From the NCBI GenBank assembly GCA_964526695.1, contig CAZGJA010000042.1, positions 21,145 through 85,144 of the forward strand: a DNA stretch of 64,000 nucleotides, given 5' to 3'. Below the pieces are notes generated by a model. That model saw nothing but the letters and a program-made list of their open reading frames with translations, was not told the DNA's origin and did not search any database. This DNA comes from an uncultured Phycisphaeraceae bacterium. Its GTDB lineage: Bacteria > Planctomycetota > Phycisphaerae > UBA1845. Shown here piece after piece: positions 13,506-41,292 of the stretch. Position 1 is the first letter of the stretch, and every line of letters begins with the position of its first letter. Position numbers and translations under genes: made by a program.

Positions 13506-13554
13506 GAGGCCCGGTGGTGCAAGGGCCTCGAAAAACCGTACGTTCGACTCGGAG

Positions 13555-23452: not shown

Positions 23453-23511
23453 TTGCCTCATTTGGTTGTGAAGGCCGAGCGGCACAAACGCCGCTCGACC
23501 GGTGTTATTTG

Positions 23512-25799: not shown

Positions 25800-26177
25800 T
25801 CAGTCGCCGCCGTCGGCTGGTGAAACGCCGTTGCGAGCCAGCCATTCCCGCAAGGCAGCCTCAACAATCGCCTGTTGCGTGTAGGGCTGGACGTAGTCGA
25901 GACCGCGCAGGGCAGCCGCTCGGCGTAGCATCCGCACCGCGTCGGTTGTCAGCCGGAGCGTGATGGATTGAAGCGGCCGCGGAGCCGGCCGTGAGGTCGA
26001 AGCTGGGAGGTGGCTTCTCAGCCGGTGCTTGGGTTCGGCTCGCGGAGTCGGCGACGCAACCGAAGGCTGCGGTGTGGAACTTCCCTCGGCAGCGGTTTCT
26101 GCCGGCTCAGGCGACTTCAAAAAGTTCCGTTGTTCGCTCGTCAGGGCGGTAAGCGTGCTGCGTCGTGTCGATTGCAT
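25800..26177 (-). CDS. ParA partner, ribbon-helix-helix-like (type Ib)
   Basis: Disordered N-terminus then SITLRLTTDAVRMLRRAA...QQAIVEAALREWL; directly after parA. Confidence 0.65.
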   Translation of the reverse strand: MQSTRRSTLTALTSEQRNFLKSPEPAETAAEGSSTPQPSVASPTPRAEPKHRLRSHLPASTSRPAPRPLQSITLRLTTDAVRMLRRAAALRGLDYVQPYTQQAIVEAALREWLARNGVSPADGGD

Positions 26178-26805
26178 GTTGGTGAATCTCCGTCAAAAGC
26201 GTCGTCATTTCGTTCGCGGCCGTCCTCGCCCCTCGGCCCATGCGCCAAACGACTGAGCGTTGGCCCGGTGCATCGGCGACGGCTTCCCTCATTTTCAAAG
26301 AGGCCCGGCAGACCGGCAACCCGAGTGCCGCTGCGGCGGCGCGGGACTCCCGTGTCAAATGAAACCGTGCATCTCGCAACCGCGTCAGTGCGATGATTCC
26401 ACTGGGTTGTGACTTCTTCCGGATGGCCTGGGCGCTGCGGAGCATTCGCACCGTAGCGGCGGTTGACTCCAGTTCTGGCAGGCTGACGCCACAGGGAATG
26501 ACGGCCAAGTGCGCCACCAGTAGCAACGCGCGCGTCGTCTCGGAGAGGTTGGCCGGCCCGTCGGCGACGATACACTCCGCCGTTCCGGTCAGCCGGTCAA
26601 CGGCCTCAATCAGATCGTCGGCCCGCTGCTCGACGATGATGTTCACTTCCGGCGCCGCAACGCGGAGCCAGTTCGAGGATGACCCCTGTCCGTCGGCATC
26701 GATCAGCGCGACGCCGTGCCCGGCCTCGTGAAGCCATGCCGCGAGGTGGACGGCCAGCGTGGTTTTTCCTACTCCGCCCTTTTGGTTGACGCACGCGATC
26801 AGCAT
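26107..26805 (-). CDS. parA: Plasmid-type ParA ATPase
   Basis: MLIACVNQKGGVGKTT, LIDADGQGS, IVADGPA, AVIPCG. Confidence 0.92.
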   Translation of the reverse strand: MLIACVNQKGGVGKTTLAVHLAAWLHEAGHGVALIDADGQGSSSNWLRVAAPEVNIIVEQRADDLIEAVDRLTGTAECIVADGPANLSETTRALLLVAHLAVIPCGVSLPELESTAATVRMLRSAQAIRKKSQPSGIIALTRLRDARFHLTRESRAAAAALGLPVCRASLKMREAVADAPGQRSVVWRMGRGARTAANEMTTLLTEIHQHAIDTTQHAYRPDERTTELFEVA

Positions 26806-27200
26806 GCGACCACCTTCGCACGATCGGCCGCTCGCCGGCAAGCGTGTTTTCACTCCCGCGCGCTGACGTGCAAGCATGTTGGCATGCCAGCAAGCCGGCG
26901 CCCAAGAATCCCCTTGCGCTATGCATCCAGTGTCGTATTCTGGGAATGGGAAAGAAGCGGATGGCGTGGAGCGCCGTCCAACGAATAACAGAGGAGGAAT
27001 CGCGGAAATGTAGCAGAACGCGCCCTGCCAGAGGGAACCAACGCTGACACGTCAAGCGTGCAGCGTGGCGGTTTTGGACCAGACACCCGAAGCCTACCAC
27101 GACTGACACCCATCTCGTCAATGGCAATCTTCTGCCACGGAACCGAAGCCTTGCCTTCGACCCGGGATCTGCGCACTCCCACTCACAAGAGGGACCGAGC

Positions 27201-28595
27201 ATGAACTCGATAAGACAATCGACCGCCCTGGCGACGGCGATGAGCCGGATGCCGGGCGGCTATCGTCGCATGGACGTGAATCATCTTTTGGCCGTCTGGC
27301 ACGCCTACCGCACGGAAAAGCGCATTCGTTTCGTGGACTTCCGCGTCTACCTGGCGCTGCACGAGATGGCCGAGCGGCGTCGAGCCGGACGCCGCAGCAA
27401 AGCGCGTCGACGGAAATCGACGCTTCCACCAAAGCGGAACCTGAGCGGAATCGTGTTGGAATGTGCCCGATTGCTGCGGGTGCGAGACTCCCGCGTCGCG
27501 TCCGGCGCCATACAGCGGCTGGCGCGTGCGGGGTTGATTTCGATTTCAGAGCATTCGATTCGACTCAAGGGGCAAGGACCCGCATCGCTAGAGCAAGACT
27601 CAAGGACCGGTTTGGCCGGTCGGAATGTGTCGCGCCGGACGATGGCAGTTCCGCGCCGAGTGCTTCGGCATCTGGCTGGCGGAGAGACCGTCAGTCGCAC
27701 CGCGACCATGCTGGGACACTTGCTACGCTGCGTATTCCATCATCGCGGTTCAGGCTGGAACTCGGTGGGGTCGTGCTCGATTCGGTTTGTGGCCGAACTG
27801 TTCGGCGTGGACGCCCGAAGCGTCAAACGCGCGCGTCGGAGGCTGGTGGACGAGGGTTGGCTGAAGCCGGAGTCGGCGGACCATTGGCACGTGCAGGCGC
27901 AGGGCGCTCGGGTGAAGGTCAACCTATCCTGGTTCCCCGGTCCGCAGGAACCACTTCTAGACGTCAACGCGGCCGGAATGTCACCCCGGCCACCCGGTTT
28001 CGCGTGCCCGTTGTCACCCCCAGGATCAAAACGCACGCTTCCCCTGGTACTTCAGAACCACACACCCGCGTTTCCGCGGGGTGTTGGTGTTTGGACCGAT
28101 GGGCCGGCTGAGGATCCACCGCGATTGGCGGATGTCCGTCTCTGCGACCTTGTGGAAGCGGATCGCCTGCAACTGCTCTGCCAGGAAGCGTGCGCGCGCG
28201 GCTGGATTCGGTCCAGCGAGCACGACACGTTGCGCGTGTTCTCCGCCGCTGCACACGCTCGAAGGGTCGGGCGCACCAACCCGTGTGGCTTGTTCGTAGT
28301 AGTCCTGCGGCGCGGGTTGTGGATGTACCTGAGCAACGATGACGATGACACCGGGCGGGCTCTGTTCCGATCGCTGAAAGACCCACGCCTGGTCGGTCCT
28401 GCGAATCGTCCGCGGGGTGCCGCACACTCGCGCGAACTCGGTCGCGAACCTGAGGAAATCCGCGGGGTAAACAACCTTGCGGCGTCCCTCGCGAGGGCAT
28501 TCACAATGCCGGGAAGCACTGCACGACGAACCGAAAGGGGAGCGCGACCTGTGTTCGCCGTAGCTCGGCTCCGTCGCGAATTGGCTTCGCGATGA
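27201..28595 (+). CDS. Putative replication initiator (two wHTH-like regions)
   Basis: DFRVYLALHEM; SIRFVAELFGVDARSVKRARRRLVDEGWL HTH; divergent from parA. The ORF is well supported; its function is inferred. Confidence 0.5.
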   Translation: MNSIRQSTALATAMSRMPGGYRRMDVNHLLAVWHAYRTEKRIRFVDFRVYLALHEMAERRRAGRRSKARRRKSTLPPKRNLSGIVLECARLLRVRDSRVASGAIQRLARAGLISISEHSIRLKGQGPASLEQDSRTGLAGRNVSRRTMAVPRRVLRHLAGGETVSRTATMLGHLLRCVFHHRGSGWNSVGSCSIRFVAELFGVDARSVKRARRRLVDEGWLKPESADHWHVQAQGARVKVNLSWFPGPQEPLLDVNAAGMSPRPPGFACPLSPPGSKRTLPLVLQNHTPAFPRGVGVWTDGPAEDPPRLADVRLCDLVEADRLQLLCQEACARGWIRSSEHDTLRVFSAAAHARRVGRTNPCGLFVVVLRRGLWMYLSNDDDDTGRALFRSLKDPRLVGPANRPRGAAHSRELGREPEEIRGVNNLAASLARAFTMPGSTARRTERGARPVFAVARLRRELASR

Positions 28596-30371: not shown

Positions 30372-31771
30372 CTACGTGTCGTCTGGGGCGTTCGTGGGGC
30401 GTTTCTGAGGCGTTTGAGGCGTTTGTGAGGCGTTTAGCACGTAGTGCGTGGCCCGGCCGGTCCGACCCCGCCGGCGGAGCAGTTGGCGGGAGACGAGTTC
30501 GTCCAGGCAACGTGACGCCGTCTGCCGGGACACGCCGAGCAATTGCTGAACCTGCTGGTTGGTCACGCGCGGCTGTTGCTTGGCGAGCAGAACGACGCGA
30601 ACCCGGTCGTCGGTAAGCCCCATCGCGCGTAGTTGCTCGGGCGTGAACCGATCCTTGGCGAAGACGACCTGGAAGCCGCCCGATTCCTCGGCGAAGCGTG
30701 GTTCCGGGAGGCCCTGCTCGCGACACAGCTCGCGCATCCGCGTCGTGCCCGTGCCCCAGCCTAAATAAGCTCAGCAAAGAAGAACATGCGGGCCAGCAGC
30801 GGATTCCGCGGCTGAGAGGAGTGCCGCTCCTTCAACAGGTCTGCCAACGTAATTCCTTCGGGAAGGGGGCCGGGGTTCCAGAAATCGACGCGGTCTTCTT
30901 CGACGCGGATCTGGATGTCGCCCAAGGCCGTGTAATCCCGATGGATGAGTGCGTTGATCGTGGCCTCACGCAGGGCATCGAGCGGGTACTCCCAGGTCTC
31001 GCGGCGTTGAATACCCTCGACGGTCATTGCGGTGGACTTGACTTCGGAGCGCAGCGCGAGGTAGCTGCGGAAGGCCTCCAGCACGCCATCGAGCTGCTGC
31101 CAGAGGTTGCCGGTGATCAGCCGGTCGTCCAGCGTGACTCCGTTCTTGAAGTGACCGATGTGGACCTGACCCGACGTGGCGACATGCTCCGGGTGCTTTC
31201 CGAACAACATCACCGCGGCCTTCGTGACTACGCCGTCGCGAAGCAGCCGAAGGTTTGTGAGTGCCTCCCGTGGATCATCGCTTTCGCTGAGCTTGGGGAG
31301 GCGTTTGGCGGCCAAACGGACGAACCGGCGAAACGCGTCGAGGTCGAGCGAACTGAAAGGAAGATCGGTGGGCAGCGCGTCCCACGTTTCGCCCAGTTTC
31401 GACATGAGCCGACGGCCGACCTGGTCCGGCGTCATGTCGCGGTTCGTGCTGCCGACGCGGGTCAGGTACCGGCCGCGGTACGCGGTCGGGACAGTAGTCG
31501 GCTCGACGCATAAGCACAGGACGGGCTTGCGGCCACGCAGCTCGATGCGGATGGCTGGTCGCAGGCCGAGCGCTTGAACGACCTGGTTGGCAATGCGCTG
31601 CTGCTCGGCGTCGTTGCCCGACCAGCCTACGACCTGCGCGTCATCGTTGACTCCGACATGTACCGTGCCGCCCTTGTGGTTCGCGAAGGCGGCGAGCGTT
31701 TCCAGCGCGGAGTCAGTCCAGCGCTCCTTGAACTCGACCGTTTCGCCTTCCTTCGGTTTCAAGCGGGCCAT
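30372..31771 (-). pseudogene. Disrupted Schlafen/AlbA_2-RecG_C-wHTH ATP-binding protein
   Basis: EGETVEFKE..AFAN.KGG, EATINALIHRDY, RNPLLA; reads ATT TAG GC TGG GGC ACG (expected I-E-A-W-G-T-G): stop at 30761-63 plus 1-nt frameshift. Confidence 0.8.
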
Positions 31772-31894: not shown

Positions 31895-32362
31895 TCAAAT
31901 CCCGATCAGAACGGCCAGAATAGCGAACGCAAGGAAAACCATGTTCGCACCTGCGATGCGGCGAGGGGGAATGTCTCGCGCAATCAGCACACCGTTGATG
32001 ACCAGGAACGCGACTGCAACCAGGTGCCACACCTGCCAAGTTCCAAAAGGTGGAAGTGGCCGGCACAATGACGCCTCGAGACCCCACCAAGACATGTCAA
32101 TCGAGTCGAGGGCTGCGGCGGCGGACGAGGACGCAAAGTAAGACAGAAAGCCGAGCACGACGAACGCGATTCCGACAGCAGCGAGCGAAAGGCGTCGTCG
32201 AAGTAGGCCCCACAGCATACCGAACAGTCCGACGAGCAGGAGCCCGGAGCGCGCCAGCGCGATGTACTCCTGCTGGTTGGCGGCGGCGACCGCCAGCCAG
32301 AGCGCGATCGGCGCGACGAGAATGGCTGCGAGAAAGATGAGAACGCGGGTCACGTTGTTCAT
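31895..32362 (-). CDS. Multi-pass membrane protein
   Basis: About 5 hydrophobic segments; ATGA overlap with the AAA gene. Confidence 0.75.
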   Translation of the reverse strand: MNNVTRVLIFLAAILVAPIALWLAVAAANQQEYIALARSGLLLVGLFGMLWGLLRRRLSLAAVGIAFVVLGFLSYFASSSAAAALDSIDMSWWGLEASLCRPLPPFGTWQVWHLVAVAFLVINGVLIARDIPPRRIAGANMVFLAFAILAVLIGI

Positions 32363-33756
32363 TGGATCCCTCCCGGAGCGGTCGAGGGGTTCACCCCGGC
32401 GCGCGCGTTAGCATGGGGGAGTTCGATCGGGACGCAGGTGAGCGGCGGACCGGCACAAACGCGTACAGGGCTTCCGGATGCACCTGCCTCGACGAGGGCA
32501 TTACCGAGAATCGCATCGATGGCGTATTCGTACGGCCGGGCACCGAAGACCTGACTCCTGGTGTGCTCCAGGATGCGAACAATCACGGCCGGTTCGATGT
32601 ACGCAACGTTGACCCCGTACTCCTGGGCAACCGCATGAACGGCAGACGCTGCGATTTCAGTCAAGGCGTTGGTGGAGAGCGGCCTAAATACGAAGAAGCG
32701 GTTGATTCGCCCGACGAGTTCTGGCGCGATGCCAGCGGCCCGGACGTGGCTACGGCAAACCTCATCTGTACGGACACTGTCATCGAAGGACTCGGTTCGA
32801 GCAAGTTCAGCGACGATGCCGTCTGAGTCCAAGTTGGCTGTGAAGATGAAGATAGCGCGCCGGCAATCGACTTCGCGCGTGCCGGTCGCAGTGCGCGACG
32901 GACTGGAGAGTCGGCCGGCGTCCATCGCGTTCATCAGGGTCTGAAGGATGGTGGGATGCGCTTTCTCTATTTCATCGAAGAGGACGACGCGCCGGGGATT
33001 GACTGCGAGGTCGTCAACTAGTTGCGCGCCTTCGCCGTGGCCGACATATCCCTGCGGAGCCCCAAGGAGCTGACTCCGGCGATGGGACTCGCCGTATTCT
33101 GACATGTCCAACCGGGTATACGAGTAGCCGATTTTCCGGGGATCAAGAGTCTGAATGACCTTGGACACGAGCGCGGCCGTACGAGTCTTTCCGACGCCTG
33201 TTGGCCCTGCGAACCAGCACGTGCATGGCCGGCGCGGGTCGATGCGGGCGACGTGGCGGCATACCTGTTCGGCCAACGGGCGCAGCACGTGGTCCTGACC
33301 GAATACATGGCGGCGGAGCTCTTCCGCGAAGCGGCTGGAGTCGACATGCGGGGCACTGTGAGTTCCTGCCTGGACAGCCTGTAACTGTTGGATCGTCGAC
33401 AGATCCGTTAGCTGCGCGACTGCCGGCGCGGAGGAATCCGGTTGACCGGCGTCAGCCGGGTAGACAGGCGCAAGGTCCGAAACGATCCACTCACGCAGGG
33501 CATGGAAATGTGGAAAACGCTTCTCTCCTCTGCTCAACCATCGCCGCAACTCGCGGTTCTGTCCCGTGTAGCGCACGCCGGTCTGGACGTAAAGGATCGC
33601 CGCCCGCGATCCGGCGTCTACCTCGAACCCGACGTGCGCATGGGACGGCTGGCATCCTGGGGGCATGCACTGGTCTCGAAATCGAATACAATGCGCAGAA
33701 GCCCTCCGCTCCAGTTGAGCCCACGCGTCGTCGCTGCCGTGGATGAATTGGTGCAT
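32359..33756 (-). CDS. ClpB/ClpA D2-type single-ring AAA+ ATPase with unknown N-domain
   Basis: GPTGVGKT, LDMSEY, pore loop GYVG, VVLFDEIEKAHP, PELVGRI, GARP; GAGGAG RBS. Confidence 0.92.
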   Translation of the reverse strand: MHQFIHGSDDAWAQLERRASAHCIRFRDQCMPPGCQPSHAHVGFEVDAGSRAAILYVQTGVRYTGQNRELRRWLSRGEKRFPHFHALREWIVSDLAPVYPADAGQPDSSAPAVAQLTDLSTIQQLQAVQAGTHSAPHVDSSRFAEELRRHVFGQDHVLRPLAEQVCRHVARIDPRRPCTCWFAGPTGVGKTRTAALVSKVIQTLDPRKIGYSYTRLDMSEYGESHRRSQLLGAPQGYVGHGEGAQLVDDLAVNPRRVVLFDEIEKAHPTILQTLMNAMDAGRLSSPSRTATGTREVDCRRAIFIFTANLDSDGIVAELARTESFDDSVRTDEVCRSHVRAAGIAPELVGRINRFFVFRPLSTNALTEIAASAVHAVAQEYGVNVAYIEPAVIVRILEHTRSQVFGARPYEYAIDAILGNALVEAGASGSPVRVCAGPPLTCVPIELPHANARAGVNPSTAPGGIQ

Positions 33757-33770
33757 GTCAAACTCCTCAA

Positions 33771-35471
33771 TCAGGGCCTGGGCGAGGGACGCATCAGACG
33801 CGTATCTGCAAACGTGCCAGCAGCATTACGAAGGTCACCAGTACCAGAGCAGTCCGGGCACACCGGCCGGGTAGGTGATTGCCCAGCATCCGGCGCCTGT
33901 GCCAGGAACAGAGTATCCAGCATGACGAAGCTGCCTGCGTCGGCGGCGCCCGCGATCCGCCTTCCAAATGTGTTGCCGAATGTAACGTCGAAGTTCGGAT
34001 CCATTCTGATACGCAACAGGTTGCGTGAACCGAGCATGGTCACCATGTTTCCCCAGCGTGGGTGGTCCGTGCTGTGGTGCGTGACGGCAAGCAGAACATG
34101 GCCGAGAATCGCGTTGAGCATTTCCGCGGCGAAGATGGGTGCGCCAGTTGAGCTTACCGTGTTGCGATAACCGTTCTCGTACGCCGCGTAGCGCGACGAT
34201 GTGATGCAGCGATGGCACGCAGGTGACACGCCCGGGATCGTGTACGTGACTTCCGCTCCGCGCCCTTCTACGTACTCTTGGGCACAGATGGTCGGCAGCC
34301 CGAAGTGCAGACCCAGCCGGTGCCCACGGGCGTTTGCCTCGAAGTTGTCAGTCAGGACCAGTAGAATCCACAATCGCGGAAGGCTTACCGCCCCCGTCGA
34401 CTCCGCCCGCATTGGCTGGCGGAGTAGGACTTCAAACGTCTCGTCGTCAATTGCTTCGATAGGTTCGGAGACAGCCAGCGCTGCCGATGCGGGATTGAGA
34501 CGTACCACATCCGCGGCCAGCGCCTCCGCCTTGGGCTTCCCGATAGCTTCGGGTTCGGCCTGCTGAGAAAAGATGTTGGCCGCAGTAACTTCGTCGGGAT
34601 CGACGAGCACTACCTCGCCATACCCCATCCGTGCGCAGTTGCGAACGAGCGAGGCTGCGCCGCCCACCCCGATCACGATGAGCCGGGTGGCGTCCAAGAG
34701 CTCCAGGTCGCAAGCAGAACCGAGCCGAGTAAGGTACTGGTCCCTCTTGGCCACGGCGTTGGCCTGGGCGGCGATCTCGTCGGTGGTAGCGGGCTGCGTA
34801 GTCACGCATTTCGGCCCAGCGCTGAGTCGCGCCCCGGGTTCCAGGGAGGCGAAGTTCCCATAGTACTTATGGCGAAGCGTCGGACGCAGTTCTCCGGGGC
34901 TTTCTTTGAGGCGTGGGAGAGTTGGAGCGGGGCTCTTCATCTCGGACGCCACGATAATGGGCTGCCGTGCGGACCCATCCGGCCCGCCATCGACAACGCG
35001 CAGCCGTCCTTTGACGATGTTGCAGCGTGAGCGATCCGTCGGGCTTGGGACCGCTGCGTACGTCAGGACCTGGAAGGCGCCGCTGTCGACCGTCGTCATA
35101 ACGATCGGGAGCCACAGCAGCTCAAGTTTCTTGAAGCACCTGAGTATCTGACCGGCATACCACTCGTCGTATCCCGACGGGCGCCGGACGCCGGCCGGAT
35201 GGCTATGCGCAAAGCCGCAGAACTCGATCCCGCTGACCTTCCATTCCTTGATGACGCGATTGAGCGACCCAATGTCCGGATCATACGCGGCGGCGCTGCA
35301 CCGGCCGTTCTTATCCGCCTCGAAGCTGCAAATGTAGCCATCCGGTCCGCGTCCGAGCATGCCGCCACGTTCTGCGCGGTGCTGGCCGATGAAGGCGCGG
35401 ATCTGTCCGAGCACGTTTTTTGACATCCGTAGGGTTGGGGCCGTTGTCGCATTGTTCTGATTTGTCACCAC
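33771..35471 (-). CDS. JAB/MPN+ isopeptidase fused to ThiF/E1-like adenylation domain
   Basis: ERGGMLG plus exact JAMM H-x-H-x7-S-x2-D (HSHPAGVRRPSGYD); VIGVGG, VDPDEV, GKPKA, TDN, Zn motifs CHRC and CPDC; AGGAGG RBS, GTG start. Confidence 0.9.
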   Translation of the reverse strand: MVTNQNNATTAPTLRMSKNVLGQIRAFIGQHRAERGGMLGRGPDGYICSFEADKNGRCSAAAYDPDIGSLNRVIKEWKVSGIEFCGFAHSHPAGVRRPSGYDEWYAGQILRCFKKLELLWLPIVMTTVDSGAFQVLTYAAVPSPTDRSRCNIVKGRLRVVDGGPDGSARQPIIVASEMKSPAPTLPRLKESPGELRPTLRHKYYGNFASLEPGARLSAGPKCVTTQPATTDEIAAQANAVAKRDQYLTRLGSACDLELLDATRLIVIGVGGAASLVRNCARMGYGEVVLVDPDEVTAANIFSQQAEPEAIGKPKAEALAADVVRLNPASAALAVSEPIEAIDDETFEVLLRQPMRAESTGAVSLPRLWILLVLTDNFEANARGHRLGLHFGLPTICAQEYVEGRGAEVTYTIPGVSPACHRCITSSRYAAYENGYRNTVSSTGAPIFAAEMLNAILGHVLLAVTHHSTDHPRWGNMVTMLGSRNLLRIRMDPNFDVTFGNTFGRRIAGAADAGSFVMLDTLFLAQAPDAGQSPTRPVCPDCSGTGDLRNAAGTFADTRLMRPSPRP

Positions 35472-35483
35472 AATCCTCCTCGG

Positions 35484-35786
35484 CTACCAAGAGCCGGTCT
35501 TGATGTACTTGACGGTATGCCGGGACCACGACTCCGCGATGGTTCGAGCCTCTCGCAGGGTTCTGGGCGGCGGTTCGTAGCAGATATGCGGTCTGCCAAA
35601 ACACCCCAGCCCGTATCGATGCGTGGAGTGGCCATCCGTCGCTCGGCCGGCCGGATATGAAGGCTGTTTATCGATGTATATCCGGATCGTTCCGTCGGTC
35701 TGCTCCACGAGCGAGAAGTGGAACGACGTGGTCGGGCTCGCGTACACGTCGTACCAAAAGCTGTCGATCTTCCTCCGATCTGCCAT
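35484..35786 (-). CDS. E2/UBC-like protein (divergent)
   Basis: Beta-rich FHFSLVEQTDGTIRIYIDKQPSYP, then STHR...GRPHIC and an LxEAxxIAxxW helix, resembling the E2 P-x-x-P/H...IC layout; AGGAGG RBS. Confidence 0.6.
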   Translation of the reverse strand: MADRRKIDSFWYDVYASPTTSFHFSLVEQTDGTIRIYIDKQPSYPAGRATDGHSTHRYGLGCFGRPHICYEPPPRTLREARTIAESWSRHTVKYIKTGSW

Positions 35787-35813
35787 GGTCATCCTCCTGT
35801 TCCGATGAGAGGC

Positions 35814-35852
35814 ACAAAGGCCCCCGGCGGCGCGGGCGGCGCCGTCGGGGGC
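35814..35852 (-). terminator. GC hairpin/attenuator between repeat peptide and E2-like gene
   Basis: Sense GCCCCCGACGGCGC-CGCCC-GCGCCGCCGGGGGC then CTTTGT (weak U-tract). Confidence 0.55.
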
Positions 35853-35863
35853 TGAAGTTGGGA

Positions 35864-36016
35864 CTAGCGGAAGCCGCCTGGCGGCAGCTCCTCATCGCCC
35901 CGGAATCCACCGGCCGGGAGTTCCTCGTCCCCGCGGAATCCGCCGGGCGGGAGCTCCTCGTCCCCACGGAACCCTCCGACGGGGAGCGATGCTTCGAAAT
36001 CGTAGATCGCCTTCAC
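35864..36016 (-). CDS. 50-aa tandem-repeat peptide MKAIYDFEASLPVGGFR(GDEELP[P/A]GGFR)x3
   Basis: Hand-translated, absent from the ORF track; GGAGGT RBS plus GTG; 33-bp repeats differ mainly at synonymous sites. Confidence 0.85.
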   Translation of the reverse strand: MKAIYDFEASLPVGGFRGDEELPPGGFRGDEELPAGGFRGDEELPPGGFR

Positions 36017-36096
36017 GATCCACCTCCAATCTCAAACTGTTGGAAGACCCGTGCTTCACTCGGAGCCGAAGCACCTGGCTCACCATCGGGACGCAT
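36013..36096 (-). CDS. 27-aa upstream peptide MRPDGEPGASAPSEARVFQQFEIGGGS
   Basis: GGAGGT RBS plus ATG 36096; TGA overlaps the GTG of the repeat peptide (GTGA coupling). Confidence 0.45.
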   Translation of the reverse strand: MRPDGEPGASAPSEARVFQQFEIGGGS

Positions 36097-36163: not shown

Positions 36164-37729
36164 GTGGCGCGTTGTAAAGCACGGCTGCGGGCTATGGACA
36201 ACATCTCAGGCTCCCCTAGAATAATGGGCATGAGCAGCACCAAGAGGGCGCGGAGCGTCGACAGCGGCAGGACGAAACGCCTGCAGAGTGGCGTTTCAGA
36301 ACCCGCCGCCGAACGTCGAGCCGGCGAGCGACCGCAGGGGAGACCTGCCCCCCCCCAGGAAGTCCCGCCCCAGAAGCCAAGCATGCCCAATGGAGGGGAA
36401 AGAGAGGAAGGGCAAGCTCTGGACGGCGGTCATCGGGGGCGACCAAGGCGGGATTCACCGGATCGTGAATCCTGGAAGAAGCTTCTCGCTACGCTTCTAA
36501 AGCAGGCCGACAACCCGCCCAGAAGCAAGGATCTTGCGGACACCGTGAAGAAATACCTAGGGAAACGCCGAGACAACCGAACGGTTTCGTCTGCGCTGAT
36601 CGACAAATGGAGATCCGTGGGTCCAAGCAATCCTCAAGCGCCGACGGATTCGGTGATGGCGAATGCGCTTCTCGACGCACTCGAGGAAAGGCTCGTTATC
36701 CGGCCGCGAAAGCCTGGGAATCAGCCTGACAAGCTATACGACGGGCTAGTGGACGAACTGCCCGGCCAAGAGTGGGACCCCGAATCCATTCGATGCAGGC
36801 TAATACAATGGTTATTCAAAGATGCAGTGCGCGATTCGGATCCCGAAGCGAAGCTCTATCGGTTTTCCTACCTTGCGGCACATGAGCTGTTCGAGGAACT
36901 CTGGCAGTATGTGTCCCCGGATGCGACGTGGGACGATTCCGATACGGCGTTTGTGGGGGCCTGCCTAATGTCGAATCGCAAACAGAGCGAAGACGTCTGG
37001 CAACTGATCGAAACAAGCAGCGGAACGTTCCAAGTACGCGAAGAAAGCGACTGTAGCATCGTTCATGTCCGGCATATCGTGATGTTCCTCTATTGGGACG
37101 GCCGTGACCGTGAGGAGGCCCAAGAGGCTTGCAAGAAACTAAAGGATGAAATCCAAGCTAAGAAATCAATGGAATTCATCACGGATCGTGCAAATGAGGG
37201 TTTGGCCACGCACGTTGTCCTCGGTGTATATCGGGGCAACGACCGCGAGAATGGACAAGAGTGTATGCGGGAGTTGCAGGATATTGCAAGGGGACTTTTT
37301 GAGGCTTGCAATAGCAATGGTCGAAAGCACTGCTTCGTCTGGCGGAAGGATTTGGAGAACGAAGCTGCAGCGCCGTACCCCATGAGCGATTTCTGGCTTC
37401 TCCTCTTTCCCGACGGCGACAGCAAGCTATGGAGGTCGATGCGGCACCCGGAACAGTTCAAGCGCATTCGGTACAGTCGAGCTACCCGCCTCTGCGCGCC
37501 TATCGGCGGATATGAGAAGCAAGCTGTTTGCTCGTGGATGGGCATTAAGGGGAGCAAGAGCGTGGCCACAGGGGATTACCTATGGCGAGTGTTGCCGGGT
37601 GCGCGCATATCGATGGATCGTTCATCTGGCACGGAACACGCCGACGCTCGTCAGGCAATAACTTCCACTCGGTCAAGTGCCTCCGTCGGACGCCCGTCGA
37701 AAGCTAAGGGGCGCGGTAAGCATGTGTGA
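36164..37729 (+). CDS. Divergent putative regulator (XRE-like HTH plus large unknown C-terminal region); start uncertain
   Basis: Long ORF; VSSALIDKWRSVGPSNPQAP resembles an XRE recognition helix; stop overlaps the ABC ATPase start. Confidence 0.55.
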   Translation: MARCKARLRAMDNISGSPRIMGMSSTKRARSVDSGRTKRLQSGVSEPAAERRAGERPQGRPAPPQEVPPQKPSMPNGGEREEGQALDGGHRGRPRRDSPDRESWKKLLATLLKQADNPPRSKDLADTVKKYLGKRRDNRTVSSALIDKWRSVGPSNPQAPTDSVMANALLDALEERLVIRPRKPGNQPDKLYDGLVDELPGQEWDPESIRCRLIQWLFKDAVRDSDPEAKLYRFSYLAAHELFEELWQYVSPDATWDDSDTAFVGACLMSNRKQSEDVWQLIETSSGTFQVREESDCSIVHVRHIVMFLYWDGRDREEAQEACKKLKDEIQAKKSMEFITDRANEGLATHVVLGVYRGNDRENGQECMRELQDIARGLFEACNSNGRKHCFVWRKDLENEAAAPYPMSDFWLLLFPDGDSKLWRSMRHPEQFKRIRYSRATRLCAPIGGYEKQAVCSWMGIKGSKSVATGDYLWRVLPGARISMDRSSGTEHADARQAITSTRSSASVGRPSKAKGRGKHV

Positions 37730-38564
37730 TGCGCTGTGCGTGGATAAACTGTCCGTCGAATATGCCACTCCAGTGGTGCCCTTACGAGCCCTGTCGGAGG
37801 TAACGTTTGCTGTGCCTCCGGGGCCTGCAGGTTCCTCGGTTTGCTGTTTGGGAGCATCGGGTGCCGGCAAAAGCACGCTCGGGCTCGCTGTTATCCAACT
37901 TCTGCCGCATGAAGCACGAGTCAAAGGCAAGGTATCCTTGCCAGGAGGCCTGACGCTCACCGCGAGCGGTGGTCGGCTGCGGGAATACCGGCGGCGCAGC
38001 GTCGGCGTCGTGCTCCAGGATGCGCCAGGTTCTTTGGTTCCCGGCGTTCCAATTGGACGGCAGGCTCGGCGCGTTTTCGCCGTGAGGCGGGGTCTTGCCC
38101 GAAGAGATGCCGAGCGAAGCGCGCGGGAAGGGCTGGCCCGGGTGGGCCTCGAAGACGTTGAGCGCGTTTGGCGGGCGATGCCATCGGAGCTCTCGGGCGG
38201 CATGTGTCAACGGGTGATGATAAGCCTTTCAGTATTGGCTGCTCCTGAGCCTCGGCTCATGATATGTGACGAGCCCACGAGTGCCCTCGATAGCGTGTCG
38301 GCTGCGCAGGTGCTTGAGTTGCTTTTTCGCATCAAGGCTGAACACCGAATCACGATGTTGTTCATTACGCACGATGTCCGTCTGGTTTGGCGCTTTGATT
38401 GGGTGGCGATTCTCTCAGAAGGCCGGCTCGCGGAGTTTGAAAGGAGTGACCAGTTCTTAGCAAGCCCGCGGAGCGAGGAAGGACGTCGGCTGCTCGATGC
38501 TGGTAAGGCCCTCGGTAGCAGTTCGGTCGATCGTGTAAATGCTCAACAGGAGATAATGCGGTGA
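37722..38564 (+). CDS. Dpp/Opp-type ABC ATPase
   Basis: GASGAGKS, LSGGMCQRV, MICDEPTSALD, FITHD. Confidence 0.93.
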   Translation: MCDALCVDKLSVEYATPVVPLRALSEVTFAVPPGPAGSSVCCLGASGAGKSTLGLAVIQLLPHEARVKGKVSLPGGLTLTASGGRLREYRRRSVGVVLQDAPGSLVPGVPIGRQARRVFAVRRGLARRDAERSAREGLARVGLEDVERVWRAMPSELSGGMCQRVMISLSVLAAPEPRLMICDEPTSALDSVSAAQVLELLFRIKAEHRITMLFITHDVRLVWRFDWVAILSEGRLAEFERSDQFLASPRSEEGRRLLDAGKALGSSSVDRVNAQQEIMR

Positions 38565-39658
38565 ACTTAATGGCTGGGTCTTTGGGAGGGGCGATACCGA
38601 CACTCCGGACGGACGGCCCTTCCGTGATATCCATTTGCGTCAATGCAGTGTGCCCCTTGAAGTGTCGGCATTGCTATTTGGCCGGGGGCGAACCCGCGAT
38701 CGGTGTCGGGGCCGCGCAGTGGCTTCGATTCTTGCGGTCCGTCTTCATCGATCTGCGGCCCCACTCCTTGTGTTTTAGCGGAAAAGAGGTCTTCGCCCTC
38801 GATGAGAGTGCGTCGCTCTTCTTCGACGCACTGCGCCTCCGGGACGAGGAGCAAGCCGGTAGCGTTCAGCGAACACGTATCGGCGTCATCACGAATGGGA
38901 CCCTGCTCGATCGGTACCGCGATCAGCTCGTTGAGTGCCCGCCGGATTGGCTCGACGTGAGCATCGACGGGTTGGAAGGCGCACACGATGAAGTGCGCGG
39001 GAAGGGCTCCTTCGCCCGCGTTGCCCGAAACCTGCCGTGGCTCGTCGAGTCGTTCGGCGCTCGGCTCTGGGTCGCAGTGACATTGATGGAGAGTAACGTC
39101 GAGACGCTCCGGGAGTTCATTTCAGGCCTCCACCACACGTCCGGTCTAAACCGGTTCACCGTGGGAATCTACAAGCCGCAGAGTTACACGGATTCAACGC
39201 TGCGGCTTGCGGAGCCCAGCCGGGAGGGACGGATTCTGCGCTCAGTCTACGCCCTCGAACAGATACAGGACGCGGATGGCGTTGTAGTGCGCATCGAACT
39301 CGACGTCGGCGATGCTGGCCTTCGATTGAGACTCCAAGACTCGGGCATGATCCCCACCGTTGGGGCGATCCGCGTCGCGGAACATTCCCTGAAGAATGGA
39401 CTAACGCTCCAACTCGCGGCCGCGACAACCCCCGTGGGACTTTGGCGAGCTGTTCGCGTGACGAACGAAGGTCTTTATCTGGCAGCAGAGGATCTCGTCG
39501 ATGTGACCGCATATCGAGAGCGCGCCATCGGGAATATCGCGGAGTTCGAGTACGACGCGAAGCGAGTCTACGAGGCCGGACTCGTGCATCCGCGCTTCCG
39601 CGAACTGGTCGGGACAGAGGCGCCTGAATTCCTGGCGCGGCTTGCCCGGTCGGCATAG
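38561..39658 (+). CDS. Radical SAM enzyme
   Basis: CPLKCRHC (CxxxCxxC), FSGKE, ITNGTLL, VSIDG..HD.VRG; C-terminal SPASM-like region without Cys. Confidence 0.9.
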   Translation: MNLMAGSLGGAIPTLRTDGPSVISICVNAVCPLKCRHCYLAGGEPAIGVGAAQWLRFLRSVFIDLRPHSLCFSGKEVFALDESASLFFDALRLRDEEQAGSVQRTRIGVITNGTLLDRYRDQLVECPPDWLDVSIDGLEGAHDEVRGKGSFARVARNLPWLVESFGARLWVAVTLMESNVETLREFISGLHHTSGLNRFTVGIYKPQSYTDSTLRLAEPSREGRILRSVYALEQIQDADGVVVRIELDVGDAGLRLRLQDSGMIPTVGAIRVAEHSLKNGLTLQLAAATTPVGLWRAVRVTNEGLYLAAEDLVDVTAYRERAIGNIAEFEYDAKRVYEAGLVHPRFRELVGTEAPEFLARLARSA

Positions 39659-39681
39659 GGGCGGTCCCTGGAGCTACCCAA

Positions 39682-41292
39682 ATGAGGCGAACAACCATCA
39701 CGATCGCGGCTGTGTTTGGAGCCCTCGGGCTCGCGGCACTTATGTTCTGGGCATACCGTGGTCAGGAGCCTACACACGTTCGCGCGGTGACAATTCCGCT
39801 GGAAGGCGACATCCAGACGCTGGACCCAGCCGCGCTTTCCGATCCGACGACAAGCCGCGTTGTTTGGCAGATATATGAAGGGCTCGTTGGGCTCGACGCG
39901 GAAAACAACGCGGTGCCGATGATTGCGGAGTCATGGGATGCTCGCGACGACTCACGCACGTGGGTATTCAGGATTCGGCAAGGTGTCTTGTTTCATCCGC
40001 ACGCAGCCTTTTCCGGGGAATCGCATAGACGAGCGGTCCGTGCTGACGATGTCGTCTGGTCGATCGAGAGAATGGCGCGTGGTTTTGGATCGTTCGTGTT
40101 TGGCGGTCTTGTCGAAGGCTTCGACGTGTACGTCAAGGGCGAAGGAAAGAGCATTACCGGTTTACGAGCCACGGGCGAGCACGAGGTCACGTTCATTCTC
40201 AATCGGCCCGACCCGTCTTTCTTGTACCGTATCACCAGCCCCTACCTGTCCGTCATGCCGCGCGAGGTGGTCGAAGGAGACGCGGATGCGTTTGGAAGGA
40301 CGGTAGCAATCGGAACGGGAGCATTTCGGTTGGTTCGGGCCGGGAGCGGTGAATTGGTTTTGGAACGATACGCAGAATACTGGGGCAGGCGAAGCGGCAA
40401 CATCGATAGCGTGACGTTCCGAGTTGAGAAGAATCCGCAGTTCCGAATGGCTGGCTTGCGATCCGGCACGTACGACCTAGTTCGTATGCCGACGGAGCTG
40501 CGCGGAGAGTTTCTTCTTCGAGACGGCAGCTTCAAACCCGAGTCTGCTGCTAGATTCCAAACGTTCGAATCGTCAACATTCAACGTGCATCTGCTGGCCG
40601 TAGATGCCAAACAGGTAACTGATGCCGCGTTGCGGCGGGCCATATCTCTGGCGGTTGACCGTGACGTTATCGTCACCGAAGTGCTGAGTGGCGGCGCTGT
40701 GCCGGCCAACGGGCCAGTTCCGCCAGGAATGCAGGGTTATCGCTCGCCGCTCCGGGTCGCTAGAGACCGAGAGGCGGCTCGACGCGAGGTCGCGGCCAGC
40801 TCCTATGCGGGGCAGGAGCTGACGCTGTTGGTGGCCAGCGTTCACAATCACCCTGACATTGTGCAGGTTGTACAAGACGAACTACTCCAGTGTGGCATCA
40901 AGACGCGCATCGAGCAGGTCGAGTTCAACGCATTCGTTAGCCGACTATTCGGCACTAATCGGCCGGCACTATTTTTGACTTATAGCGAATGGATTTATTC
41001 GGCGCCGGAGCTATTGATGGAACAGTTTCGGTCCACGGCTACGCCGAATCCGAACGTATTCGGTTATGCGGACGACCGTGTTGACGCTCTAATCGCTCAA
41101 CTTGGCGCGACCACGGAGCGGTCTGAACTGAATCGGCTGTGCGCTGATATCGAAAGGATTGTGGCAGAAGCACCACCGGCCGCATGGCTCTACCACGAGC
41201 GGCATATGTTCCTGGCAGCTAAACGACTCTCACACTTCGCTGTGACGGGCAACAATCATTGGCTCCTTTCGGAGCTGCGGAGTGAGCCGTAA
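39682..41292 (+). CDS. Family-5 peptide/nickel ABC substrate-binding protein
   Basis: N-terminal anchor, TLDPA, IYEGLV, GTGAFRL, LRRAISLAVDR. Confidence 0.93.
   Translation: MRRTTITIAAVFGALGLAALMFWAYRGQEPTHVRAVTIPLEGDIQTLDPAALSDPTTSRVVWQIYEGLVGLDAENNAVPMIAESWDARDDSRTWVFRIRQGVLFHPHAAFSGESHRRAVRADDVVWSIERMARGFGSFVFGGLVEGFDVYVKGEGKSITGLRATGEHEVTFILNRPDPSFLYRITSPYLSVMPREVVEGDADAFGRTVAIGTGAFRLVRAGSGELVLERYAEYWGRRSGNIDSVTFRVEKNPQFRMAGLRSGTYDLVRMPTELRGEFLLRDGSFKPESAARFQTFESSTFNVHLLAVDAKQVTDAALRRAISLAVDRDVIVTEVLSGGAVPANGPVPPGMQGYRSPLRVARDREAARREVAASSYAGQELTLLVASVHNHPDIVQVVQDELLQCGIKTRIEQVEFNAFVSRLFGTNRPALFLTYSEWIYSAPELLMEQFRSTATPNPNVFGYADDRVDALIAQLGATTERSELNRLCADIERIVAEAPPAAWLYHERHMFLAAKRLSHFAVTGNNHWLLSELRSEP

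Follow-up and report, generated by a model that had tools for sequence, protein, structure and literature searches.

A repeat-peptide gene, a small His/Cys protein and a JAB-E1 fusion form a conserved operon that may encode a peptide-based, Bub-like pathway

Introduction

Ubiquitin is made as head-to-tail repeats or as N-terminal fusions, from which a dedicated isopeptidase family releases the modifier. Pupylation combines a disordered small tag that has a conserved C-terminal motif with the ring AAA+ ATPase Mpa/ARC and a glutamine-synthetase-like ligase, PafA/Dop, and the QbsCDE and CysO/Mec pathways follow a logic of JAB, E1 and a carrier with a trimmed tail. JAB/E1/carrier operons appear in rows 4a-4e of Iyer 2006 (PMC1779556). 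Closest to the locus described here is Type I Bub, in which a Ubl-E2 fusion is cleaved by the system's own JAB-E1 fusion (Ye et al. 2024, PMC11601596) and which is operon type 6E.1 of Iyer, Burroughs and Aravind (2006).

Here, we analyse an operon within a 64,000-nucleotide stretch of DNA (the window) from an uncultured Phycisphaeraceae bacterium; we found no published description of this peptide/JAB-E1 operon in the literature. The initial annotation had read it as a ubiquitin-like conjugation system whose modifier is a short repeat peptide. The explanation that we prefer, at slightly short of an even chance, is a Bub-like (ubiquitination-like) pathway that uses a ribosomally made short peptide instead of a folded beta-grasp modifier.

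Results

Five genes of the window are co-directional and each is preceded by a Shine-Dalgarno sequence (Table 1). The first, a GTG-initiated minus-strand ORF (36016-35864) with GGAGG 5 nt ahead of the GTG, encodes a peptide of 50 aa, MKAIYDFEASLPVGGFRGDEELPPGGFRGDEELPAGGFRGDEELPPGGFR, just as originally described. It can be parsed as a leader, MKAIYDFEAS, followed by four LPxGGFR cores with GDEE linkers between them or, alternatively, as containing three full 11-residue units, GDEELP[PA]GGFR; the last Arg is the exact end of the ORF. Among the three complete units, 16 nucleotide differences are synonymous and 3 are non-synonymous, and in other arrays the peptides are identical despite dozens of synonymous differences between copies. 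Since the units differ mostly at synonymous positions, the protein database contains 29 related peptides and homologous operons in many phyla encode such peptides, the window gene is more than a chance ORF; it is real and conserved. The GC-rich hairpin that follows it has no U tract and a z-score of only -1.4, and no terminator-like site was found there; this weak feature may increase the ratio of peptide to enzymes, through attenuation or by stabilising the transcript.

Table 1. Features of the operon in the window
Feature	Coordinates	Strand	Evidence
Precursor peptide gene, 50 aa	35864..36016	-	ORF and RBS; unit differences; homologous peptides in 57 loci
13-bp GC-rich hairpin between peptide gene and next gene	35820..35852	-	MFE and centroid structures; weak feature
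Small protein, 100 aa (102 aa from start 35792)	35484..35786	-	homologue family; predicted structure; gene position
JAB-E1 gene, 566-aa product	33771..35471	-	
JAB/JAMM metalloprotease domain, about residues 1-160	34992..35471	-	invariant JAMM residues; confident model; BubCD JAB alignment
E1/ThiF adenylation domain, about residues 230-566	33771..34784	-	Pfam ThiF; conserved residues; structural match
ClpB-D2-type single-ring AAA+ ATPase, 465 aa	32359..33756	-	Pfam, NCBIfam, motifs, occurrence across loci
Hydrophobic 155-aa protein, 5 predicted TM segments	31895..32362	-	lineage-specific accessory; ATGA overlap

Examination of the regions upstream of homologous operons revealed equivalent peptide genes at 57 of about 80 loci, in more than ten phyla; no recognisable peptide was found in about a quarter of the loci. 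The precursors hold 1-8 copies of a unit with the consensus G-[GD]-[DE]-x-[ILV]-P-x-G-[GT]-[FWL]-[RH]. At no fewer than 12 loci, from several phyla, array and small domain form one in-frame fusion with the array at the N-terminal side, and elsewhere the peptide gene lies directly upstream of the small-domain gene. [RH] is the very last residue of twelve arrays and of about ten single-copy peptides. Some repeat precursors carry a short C-terminal extension and others do not. A JAB cut between Gly-Gly and Phe-Arg, by analogy with di-Gly modifiers, had been proposed; it is unsupported, because most clades have Thr in place of the second Gly, many precursors end at [RH], and the alignment columns found to covary with the type of peptide (below) belong to the E1 domain rather than to JAB. 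The wider analogy with polyubiquitin, on the other hand, is strengthened by the array-small-domain fusions and by the Type I Bub precedent of a JAB-E1 protein that cleaves its own Ubl-E2 fusion. As with ubiquitin, the repeats are arranged head-to-tail or as an N-terminal fusion and release by an isopeptidase family would apply; unlike polyubiquitin, the units have 11 residues and no fold, and their conserved end is aromatic-basic instead of Gly-Gly.

The conserved core of the operon consists of the peptide, a His/Cys domain of about 90 aa and the JAB-E1 fusion, with the peptide gene in first place. The operon resides on mobile elements and is spread over more than ten bacterial phyla, with its loci in defence islands and conjugative elements, in line with the setting in defence or element control first suggested. 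Also as first suggested, the window operon contains no beta-grasp gene: no operon protein matches a ubiquitin-like family in Pfam, nor does Pfam match PafA/Dop there. In the window, genes for a peptide ABC importer and a radical SAM enzyme adjoin the operon and are divergently transcribed.

In the 566-aa protein, Pfam detects ThiF (8.6e-14) and Prok-JAB (5.7e-5, under the curated cut-off). None of the JAMM residues E34, H89-S-H91, S99 and D102 varies among 26 homologues, confirming a JAB domain with an intact motif fused to an E1/ThiF domain. The latter displays GxGG (268-271), R281, D291, K314, D375 and CxxC pairs at 419/422 and 538/541, and its adenylation residues are invariant among homologues; the crossover loop has an invariant R427-Y428 and no Cys beyond the CxxC pair. 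BubCD (9ea4) is the best PDB match to the JAB-E1 model and spans both domains, whereas by sequence the protein is as near to TcdA, MoeB or MccB as to BubCD, and the PADLOC E1-E2 and JAB models match it weakly. Columns 371, 395-402, 443-465 and 514-518, which flank the crossover loop on both sides, track peptide type, a covariation that is confounded by phylogeny and involves few independent switches. One of these positions, K455, goes with a terminal His: two loci of the Arg type that branch among relatives of the His type have lost it.

Sequence and structure matches of the E1 domain include MccB and PaaA, which lends weight to the main rival explanation, one that the initial annotation had already raised as an alternative and that we consider rather unlikely: a ThiF-type RiPP pathway that yields no protein tag but a free product, be it a signal, a toxin or a molecule resembling a cofactor. 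JAB would serve as a leader or linker peptidase that frees the 11-mers and the E1-like domain would adenylate their C-terminal carboxylate, after which an internal nucleophile would form a ring or other intramolecular product, candidates being the amine of the invariant N-terminal Gly, for head-to-tail cyclisation, and the side chain of the terminal Arg/His; the small domain would be a peptide-binding or acyl-carrier helper. A ThiF-fold enzyme beside a very short precursor, with the conserved residues of the precursor C-terminal, is the arrangement of MccB/microcin C, IndF, EnfB and PaaA/pantocin A. Of these, MccB, IndF and EnfB adenylate the conserved C-terminal residues of such peptides, and multi-core short precursors with conserved C-terminal motifs are typical of RiPPs (PMC12596934), which counts against a conjugation reading. 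The precursors of the present operons are short; their leader varies and their C-terminal core, present in 1-8 copies, is strictly conserved. The units are rich in Pro and Gly, fitting cyclisation, a hairpin lies 3' of the precursor gene, and the importer and radical SAM genes are adjacent. However, neither of those two genes belongs to the recurrent neighbour clusters, and a conserved gene for an exporter or for immunity was not found. In place of the RRE or peptide clamp of the ThiF-like RiPP enzymes, neither of which Pfam found, the N-terminal domain is JAB, and no mention of JAB/JAMM was found in the consulted literature on these enzymes. The obligatory small Cys/His domain is a further difference from them; its fusion to the precursor at some loci, the dedicated AAA+ unfoldase and the variable downstream modules are closer to defence- or conjugation-type systems than to biosynthetic clusters.

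In about 68 of 76 genome loci, the gene of the small domain immediately precedes that of JAB-E1. Translation in the window most likely begins at ATG 35786, giving 100 aa, since AGGAGG lies 6 nt before it and the closest homologues (P0001 and P0002) start with MADRR, in agreement with this position. By sequence comparison, the protein founds an unannotated family of domains of about 90 aa (733 cluster representatives), in which Y14, F26, Y39, P44, Y46, R50, T57-H58-R59, C71, W89, A90, T93, Y96 and G100 (102-aa numbering) are near-invariant and the C-terminal motif is Y-I-x-T-G-x-x-F. Some proteins contain two or three tandem domains, and P0213 and P0262 are natural small-domain-JAB-E1 fusions. 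The AF2 model, one of those built from shallow alignments (15 and 26 sequences), has three strands, one helix and a long loop that bears the His and Cys. The length, Cys and operon position of the '100-aa E2-like protein' stand, but an E2 identity is not supported: a PDB search with the model gave no UBC fold, Pfam and PDB sequence searches give no match, and hhalign against the Bub E2 domain returns a probability of 0.05%. The 'E2-like' label draws only on gene position and a His...Cys pattern.

These properties of the small domain also bear on a distinctly improbable reading, in which the repeats work non-covalently, as a series of short linear motifs in a disordered multivalent tail or in a free ligand, to recruit or regulate the JAB-E1 dimer or the AAA+ hexamer, and the E1 substrate lies elsewhere, for example in the small protein trimmed at its C-terminal motif. 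In several phyla, the small domain does carry the array as its N-terminal tail, the copy number of the unit varies from 1 to 8, and the small domain has a near-invariant Gly 3 residues from its end and, with its tandem forms, is loosely polyUbl-like. Against this, the motif stands at the exact C-terminus of free peptides, single-copy ones included, which points to carboxylate chemistry. In the model, the Gly caps a long helix, with a tail of conserved length and an aromatic final residue beyond it, unlike a flexible tail that is cleaved off; the model is not beta-grasp, and conserved His, Cys and Arg would be unusual for a modifier.

The 465-aa ATPase, whose start is preceded by GAGGAG at 7 nt, matches AAA_2 in Pfam (7.7e-32), aligns with the D2 half of ClpB and ClpA in NCBIfam, and contains Walker A GPTGVGKT, Walker B DEIEKAH and the pore loop GYVG; the PADLOC DolB and PDC-M37B models match it at 1e-16 to 1e-17. 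It occurs directly after JAB-E1 in 38 loci (about half), and its system-specific N-terminal domain of about 140 aa is conserved in about 38 loci, so that the proposed D2-type ClpB partner proves frequent and dedicated. It shares the AAA_2 module and GYVG pore loop with the ClpB/ClpV D2 ring and DolB of the Dodola defence system, from which the single ring, the particular N-domain and the absence of a DolA partner set it apart. A small disordered ribosomal tag with a conserved C-terminal motif and a nearby ring AAA+ unfoldase recalls Pup/UBact; adenylation here is of E1 type in contrast to PafA/Dop, and there is no proteasome or protease partner. The membrane-protein gene is translationally coupled to the ATPase gene, overlapping its stop codon (ATGA), yet the 155-aa product has no homologue at any other locus, and only 11 of 32 loci have any TM protein after the ATPase. 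The 155-aa protein is an accessory specific to its lineage, outside the conserved set and not, as initially listed, a system component.

In one subclade (L004), the small protein and JAB-E1 are coupled to PAPS-reductase/DndC-like, SMC-like and DndE-like genes. Such coupling would suit sulfur transfer of the ThiS/MoaD/QbsE type, the least probable of the readings and a highly improbable one, in which JAB exposes a C-terminus that E1 adenylates and that is converted to a thiocarboxylate, passing sulfur to a metabolite or DNA; JAB, E1 and a trimmed-tail carrier also match the logic of QbsCDE and CysO/Mec. Subclade L004, however, has no recognisable peptide, Pfam found neither a rhodanese domain on the E1 nor a cysteine desulfurase or other sulfur-metabolism gene in the window operon, and sulfur-metabolism genes are missing from the recurrent neighbour clusters; a dedicated AAA+ and a mobile-element context fit metabolism poorly.

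Discussion

What we observe directly is a conserved gene set with intact catalytic motifs, with fusions and with a JAB-E1 protein structurally akin to BubCD; the chemical steps, cut site, target and biological role of the peptide-based Bub-like pathway are what we infer. The precursor, a separate peptide or an N-terminal extension of the small domain, would supply 1-8 units, and the JAB domain would trim it, most likely on the C-terminal side of [RH], ahead of the next small residue, releasing units with an aromatic-basic C-terminus and, in fused forms, also the small domain. The E1 domain would bind the [GT][FWL][RH] tail and adenylate the terminal carboxylate; a C-terminal motif suits such activation. 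As the E1 domain has no catalytic Cys, the activated peptide would be handed to Cys71 of the small domain, with His58 close by and Tyr428 of the crossover loop as a possible relay, as in BubCD, and from there be moved onto an amine of a target. Where the ATPase is present, its N-domain could engage the tagged product or peptide, which the ATPase would then unfold, and JAB might also reverse the modification.

Several lines of evidence favour this pathway. The layout matches Type I Bub, a modifier-E2 fusion upstream of a JAB-E1 fusion, and BubCD is the best structural match of the window protein over both domains. In both systems, the E1 domain lacks a catalytic Cys and has an invariant crossover-loop Tyr, the modifier precursor is immediately upstream, fused to or preceding a small partner domain, and the loci are mobile and in defence-associated contexts. 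The invariant JAMM and adenylation residues and the near-invariant T-H-R and Cys of the small domain would be expected of such a pathway; the two kinds of fusion support it, as do the covarying E1 columns, the dedicated AAA+ N-domain and the defence and conjugative context. The combination of E1, JAB peptidase and small Cys domain, single-chain fusions included, is shared with Type II CBASS Cap2/Cap3 and 6A E2-E1-JAB fusions; in contrast to these, there is no CD-NTase or other C-terminally conjugated enzyme here, the domain order differs and the small domain is no recognisable E2.

The operon also differs from Type I Bub. The modifier is 1-8 copies of an 11-residue peptide, not beta-grasp; the partner domain has no detectable UBC fold or homology and a Cys/His pair in contrast to the Ser/His of Bub; a DUF6527 protease is absent, and a dedicated ClpB-D2-like ATPase is frequent. 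That the JAB-E1 sequence is no nearer to BubCD than to TcdA, MoeB or MccB counts against the pathway, as do the lack of a detectable E2 fold in the small domain, the loci lacking a recognisable peptide, the phylogenetic confounding of the covariation and the shallow alignments behind the AF2 models. To our knowledge, neither an 11-residue modifier nor adenylation of a C-terminal Arg/His has a precedent among E1/E2 conjugation pathways.

The genomic setting of the operon suggests a biological role in conflict among mobile elements, phages and their hosts.

A repeat-peptide gene heads a five-gene operon

The initial annotation placed an unrecognised repeat-peptide reading frame at the head of a run of genes, and the sequence, the ribosome-binding sites and domain searches confirm both the frame and the run. 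The operon consists of five minus-strand genes between 36016 and 31895 that are co-directional and close-set or overlapping, each preceded by a Shine-Dalgarno sequence (see the table). The product of the first gene reads MKAIYDFEAS-LPVGGFR-GDEE-LPPGGFR-GDEE-LPAGGFR-GDEE-LPPGGFR-stop. No terminator-like site was found after the peptide gene, and a hairpin there was not significant when compared with shuffled sequences. For the second gene, which encodes the small protein, an alternative ATG lies 6 bases upstream and would give a product of 102 aa; this start is unlikely to be real, because AGGAGG abuts that ATG and the closest homologues begin MADRR. Residue numbering follows the 102-aa form.

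Features of the operon, the surrounding insert and the divergent cluster
Feature	Coordinates	Strand	Remarks
ParB	5417-7261		insert
Ser/Thr kinase with TPR repeats	7826-10417		insert
341-aa protein, third-position GC 0.89	13555-14580	-	without Pfam domain; phrog_1362 (phage family, function not assigned) 7.5e-14
TrwB/TraD-type coupling protein	17735-20848		insert
N6/N4 DNA methylase	22709-23602		insert
ParA	26107-26877		insert
Replication-initiator-like HTH protein	27201-28595		insert
121-aa winged-helix ORF	30372-30737	-	
AlbA_2/Schlafen + HATPase_c_4 regulator	30761-31771	-	
Hydrophobic protein, 155 aa	32362-31895	-	no match in Pfam, NCBIfam, PADLOC or PHROGs
ClpB-D2-like ATPase, 465 aa	33756-32359	-	Pfam AAA_2 7.7e-32; NCBIfam alignment to second ATPase ring of ClpB, ClpA and ClpV
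JAB-E1 protein, 566 aa	35471-33771	-	Pfam ThiF 8.6e-14; Prok-JAB just below threshold
Small protein, 100 aa	35786-35484	-	no match in Pfam, NCBIfam, PADLOC or PHROGs
Repeat-peptide ORF, 50 codons, GTG start	36016-35864	-	no match in Pfam, NCBIfam, PADLOC or PHROGs
Cluster divergent from peptide operon	36164-43054	+	521-aa protein, ABC ATPase, radical SAM, family-5 solute-binding protein, two permeases
Radical SAM enzyme	38561-39658	+	within divergent cluster
AbiEi-like gene	43293-44318		insert
Integrase	44874-45803		insert

The peptide family and its C-terminal motif

The three complete 33-nt units of the window differ at 16 synonymous and 3 non-synonymous nucleotide positions, and selection therefore acts on the peptide and not on a DNA repeat; outside the window such counts are biased, the copies having been picked by their peptide pattern, and only the synonymous totals are informative. 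Searching with the 50-aa sequence recovered 29 related small proteins, each with a variable leader and 2-4 copies of the unit. The nearest homologous operon, in a Lentisphaerae MAG, has a small protein 65% identical to that of the window and a peptide gene in the matching position, its array split by a scaffold gap. We collected 64 distinct arrays with 2-8 copies and a period that is nearly always 11 residues (a few have 12, and one clade 20). The unit varies by clade, from GDEELPPGGFR in the window clade to GGDEIPPGTFH, GGEEIPPGGWR, GGEEIKPGTLH and GGDSVPPGTFH, with the consensus G-[GD]-[DE]-x-[ILV]-P-x-G-[GT]-[FWL]-[RH]. A stop codon comes right after the last [RH] in 12 arrays, and a small residue follows it in 46 (G 15, A 13, S 11, C 4, T 3). 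Single-copy peptide ORFs, such as MNTMPMFGGDEIPPGTFH-stop and MIKRRGDDELPPGTFR-stop, occur in at least 12 further loci. The motif is therefore C-terminal.

In Bacteroidota, Ignavibacteriota, Blastocatellia, Anaerolineae and one cyanobacterium, the small domain carries the complete array at its N-terminus as an in-frame fusion, as in ...GGEEIPPGGWR-AVID-TYRSKNG.... The two are encoded separately in some genomes and as a single fusion in others, which implies that peptide and small domain work together, as a Rosetta-stone pair. In the clade whose units end in GTLH (homologous loci L070, L073, L060, L068 and L071), the final repeat, next to the fused small domain, is always degenerate; the junction, E-x-L-x-x-G-T-L-[CYR]-A-x-[FY]-[SY]-P-A-T-Y-R-T, is conserved and could be a special or non-cleavable site. 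In two other homologous loci (L001 and L002, 1687-1786), a run of N lies within the repeat array of the scaffold. Array copy numbers from metagenome assemblies may be too low, because assemblers struggle with these arrays.

A three-gene core is spread across many phyla

The small protein has 14 close relatives, and its domain profile, run against 1.84 billion cluster representatives, recovers 733 members at E <= 1e-3 and 385 at E <= 1e-10. Homologues of the JAB-E1 protein form 69 clusters. Scanning one genome per species gave 76 JAB-E1 loci, in Planctomycetota, Verrucomicrobiota, Kiritimatiellota, Lentisphaerota, Desulfobacterota, Acidobacteriota, Bacteroidota, Ignavibacteriota, Actinomycetota, Cyanobacteria, Chloroflexota, Clostridia and others. 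In about 68 of these 76, the small-domain HMM has a match immediately before the JAB-E1 gene, a neighbour count that, like the others here, is approximate, gene calling in the high-GC loci being crude. In 57 loci small domain, JAB-E1 gene and peptide motif were found together. The three-gene core is also present in isolate or culture-collection records, namely Pontiellaceae B12227 and B12219, Dietzia sp. PP-33 and Chroococcopsis gigantea SAG 12.99.

The small domain carries a conserved His and Cys

Across 74 diverse members of the small-domain family, Y14, F26, Y39, P44, Y46, R50, T57-H58-R59, C71, W89, A90, T93, Y96 and G100 are near-invariant, with 11 residues between T57-H58-R59 and C71, and the protein usually ends in Y-I-x-T-G-x-x-F. 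An AlphaFold2 model (15 sequences, pLDDT 82) has three strands, a long loop bearing the His and the Cys, and one long helix. The initial annotation read this protein as E2-like, and its gene position and His-then-Cys spacing do recall an E2, but none of the fold and profile comparisons supported membership of the E2 superfamily. Foldseek against the PDB gave nothing significant (best E 0.3), neither a UBC nor a beta-grasp fold; the topology of the model is loosely compatible with UBC, and small, loop-rich models are hard for Foldseek. The family profile matched no PDB sequence at E up to 10, none of the 733 members has a Pfam domain, and hhalign against DUF6791, the E2 domain of the Type II bacterial ubiquitination-like (Bub) operons, gave 0.05% with an alignment of two sequences only. 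We set aside a reading of the small protein as a beta-grasp ubiquitin-like protein (Ubl) with a cleavable C-terminal Gly, given that the model is not beta-grasp, the Gly caps the helix and the tail is conserved to its end.

The small domain also occurs in tandem, two or three to a protein, and in two JAB-E1 homologues it is fused at the N-terminus. Some loci encode two or three small-protein paralogues, some of them without the Cys. In four loci (L047 1653-3253, L054 4945-5617, L048 and L085), one paralogue often keeps the Cys and another loses it, examples of the Cys-less form being ...KYIDWHPP and ...WLINWPG. Such pairs recall the inactive E2 variants (UEV) that are paired with active E2s.

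The JAB-E1 protein resembles BubCD

The JAB domain of the window has the JAMM zinc-site pattern, E ... H-x-H ... S-x-x-D, and the residues concerned (E34, H89, H91, S99 and D102) are invariant in 26 homologues and conserved among 57. The strict motif is present in 36 of the 57 loci, and inspection shows a variant spacing in the clade whose units end in GWR. The adenylation residues, GxGG 268-271, R281, D291, K314 and D375, are likewise conserved in both sets. Two conserved CxxC pairs, C419/C422 and C538/C541, lie in the E1 domain; in both alignments the only conserved Cys within 405-445 are those of the CxxC pair. The crossover loop that follows the first CxxC has no further Cys, and its R427 and Y428 are 96-100% conserved.

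The AlphaFold2 model of the protein (pLDDT 84.6) finds as its best PDB match by Foldseek the Citrobacter BubCD, a Type I Bub JAB-E1 fusion (9ea4, 526 columns). BubCD is the only PDB match to span both domains; the matches to UBA5, ThiF, Uba4, Cap2 and MccB are confined to the E1 half. Sequence and structure matches of the E1 domain in the PDB include TcdA, MoeB, MccB and UBA5, and by sequence alone BubCD (2.6e-7) is no closer than TcdA, MoeB and MccB. In two Acidobacteriaceae MAGs (loci L021 and L022), the JAB-E1 gene is apparently interrupted, its ORF beginning in mid-JAB domain (MPIVQTVPDTGRFE...). At 3258-6916 of L022, two ORFs of 494 and 260 aa, which by eye look like an IS21-type transposase pair, lie between the small-protein gene and the interrupted gene.

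Where the precursor may be cut

Three observations speak against Gly-Gly as the key to the cut first proposed, GG|FR. The second Gly is Thr in most clades; many free peptides, multi- and single-copy, close exactly at [RH]; and the columns most informative about peptide type across the 57 loci are all in E1 and none in JAB. The residue after the final [RH], if there is one, is small, like the Gly after each internal [RH]. We prefer units ending in [RH], which would be cut before the following small residue, because of the Thr variants, the [RH] ends and the location of the covarying columns in E1. Cleavage behind the invariant Gly or behind [GT] is a possible alternative.

In the 57-locus alignment the peptide-type-informative columns are 371, 395-402, 443-465 and 514-518, and in the AlphaFold2 model these E1 segments flank the crossover loop. 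In E1 structures the tail of the modifier lies beside this loop. Lys455 goes with a terminal His in the groups whose units end in TFH, GFH and TWH, and two loci of Arg type whose nearest relatives are His-type (L038 and L041) have Ala or Cys at this position; L052 and the TLH clade are exceptions, and the signal is confounded by phylogeny and based on few switches. The pattern suggests that [FWL][RH] would still be on the peptide when E1 binds.

Accessory genes and genomic setting

In 38 loci the gene after JAB-E1 encodes a ClpB-D2-like ATPase. Walker A, Walker B and a GYVG pore loop can be read from its sequence, and its first ~140 residues form a domain that is conserved across those loci. 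The ATPase is a dedicated partner and not a universal one; in some loci unrelated genes take its place. We set aside the membrane protein as a part of the system: the 155-aa protein of the window has no homologue in any other locus, and of 32 evaluable loci only 11 have a hydrophobic protein of some kind after the ATPase. The 521-aa protein of the divergent cluster also has no homologue in the other loci, and we rejected it as a part of the system. A subclade represented by two loci (L004, 8001-14988, and L005) has the small protein and JAB-E1 followed by PAPS-reductase/DndC-like, SMC/AAA_23 and DndE/HerA-like genes; its small protein is extended at the N-terminus by a conserved hydrophobic stretch, and the upstream sequence showed no recognisable peptide gene.

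The window operon sits in an insert of ~40 kb with chromosomal RND-efflux genes on both sides, and the region 5417-45803 resembles an integrative conjugative or mobilisable element. ARAGORN detected no tRNA gene in the whole window. Together, the genes of the cluster divergent from the operon make up an oligopeptide-type importer in which a radical SAM gene is embedded. AlbA_2/Schlafen, HATPase_c_4 and winged-helix domains usually form one protein; here the AlbA_2/Schlafen ORF, which belongs to the insert, and the 121-aa winged-helix ORF lie end to end with a 23-nt gap, and the pair may be a frameshifted or split regulator.

In other genomes the neighbours include coupling proteins, relaxases and recombinases, as well as ParE/RelB, AbiE, Gabija-like genes, a CD-NTase, an integrase and a Lit-like peptidase. 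A tblastn search with JAB-E1 gave no match in the plasmid and phage collections, and among 2.9 million viral contigs only 2 convincing relatives were present; this is therefore not a phage system. The system is a cargo of integrative elements and defence islands. In three Bacteroidota loci (L062, ~11900-14134; L063, 11712-13982; L076, from 11727 onward), a further ubiquitination-like operon comes directly after the repeat-peptide system, and two E1 systems therefore stand side by side. In L062 and L076 this is an apparent complete Type II Bub operon with a multiubiquitin-like gene, DUF6791-ThiF and DUF6527, the latter two Pfam-confirmed in L062; L063 has a Pfam-confirmed Multi_ubiq gene and then a second JAB-E1-like gene.

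Comparison with known systems and proposed mechanism

Operon type 6e combines a polyUbl, an RWD-like or inactive-E2-like domain and a JAB-E1 fusion, the E2-like domain being either fused to the polyUbl C-terminus or encoded separately between polyUbl and JAB-E1 (Iyer, Burroughs and Aravind 2006, PMC1779556). These operons were renamed Bub by Ye et al. (2024, PMC11601596), in whose Type I the E1 lacks a catalytic Cys and uses a crossover-loop Tyr instead, and the E2 uses Ser/His. The system described here shares with Type I Bub (6E.1) its gene order and fused-or-split pattern, an N-terminal JAB fused to a homodimeric-type E1 as in BubCD and, as judged from the alignments, an invariant crossover-loop Tyr in an E1 that appears to have no catalytic Cys. 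It differs in having a tandem 11-residue peptide where Bub has beta-grasp domains (Pfam found no beta-grasp or Multi_ubiq domain in the window operon), an apparently unrelated domain with conserved His58/Cys71 where Bub has a UBC-fold Ser/His E2, and no DUF6527 serine protease (BubE). Pfam found no DUF6527 in the window operon proteins, and elsewhere that domain was seen only in a separate Type II Bub operon beside the system in L062, L063 and L076.

The genes and their conservation, the intact catalytic motifs, the fusions and the relationship to BubCD are all observed. The mechanism that we tentatively hold to be the most likely is a Bub-like cascade with a ribosomal peptide as its substrate, and its chemistry we infer throughout. 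JAB would trim the repeat-peptide precursor, E1 would adenylate the C-terminus of the peptide, Cys71 of the small domain would receive the peptide and hand it on to a target, and the ATPase would act on the product.

The main rival, which we rate as rather improbable, is a ThiF-type modified ribosomal peptide (RiPP) pathway in which the activated peptide reacts with itself. ThiF-dependent RiPP systems likewise have a short precursor with a conserved C-terminal core adjoining a ThiF-like enzyme, and known ThiF-like RiPP enzymes act on C-terminal motifs of just this kind. They differ in having a leader-binding RRE or peptide clamp and an exporter or immunity gene; here the N-terminal domain is a JAB, Pfam found no RRE in the operon, and no conserved transporter was found among the neighbouring genes. 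The small domain may have a cryptic peptide-binding function. Lesser rivals are an array of motifs that acts non-covalently and a role as sulfur carrier.

In contrast to pupylation, the operon has no PafA/Dop by Pfam, and its peptide has an aromatic-basic end where Pup has GGQ/GGE. Membership of Dodola was rejected, as the ATPase alone matches DolB (1.7e-16), with no DolA and no other PADLOC match of Dodola, and so was membership of the PRTRC cassettes, the sole match being 0.0019 to the PRTRC ThiF model. No paper describing the system came up in full-text literature searches for its motif and for its combination of genes.

In its fullest form, about which we are doubtful, the Bub-like reading amounts to ubiquitin-type tagging with an unfolded 11-residue modifier, produced either as a tandem precursor like polyubiquitin or as a fusion with its own carrier. 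JAB-E1 would release and activate the modifier, a new Cys/His carrier would bear it and a dedicated AAA+ protein would read it, in conflicts between conjugative element, phage and host. If the peptide is conjugated, E1-type tagging would not need a beta-grasp modifier, and a C-terminal tail of ~11 residues would suffice as the smallest "ubiquitin". This would bear on the evolution of ubiquitin-like signalling and on what E1 enzymes recognise, and would provide a very small tag that can be encoded genetically and comes with a ligase, a remover and an unfoldase of its own. Should the product instead be a RiPP, it would to our knowledge be the first RiPP class made with a fusion of JAB peptidase and E1, and its precursor family would be large and easily mined. 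In either case, this study defines a domain family of 733 cluster representatives that had no annotation, a family of peptides that share a sharp motif, and a testable three-gene core.
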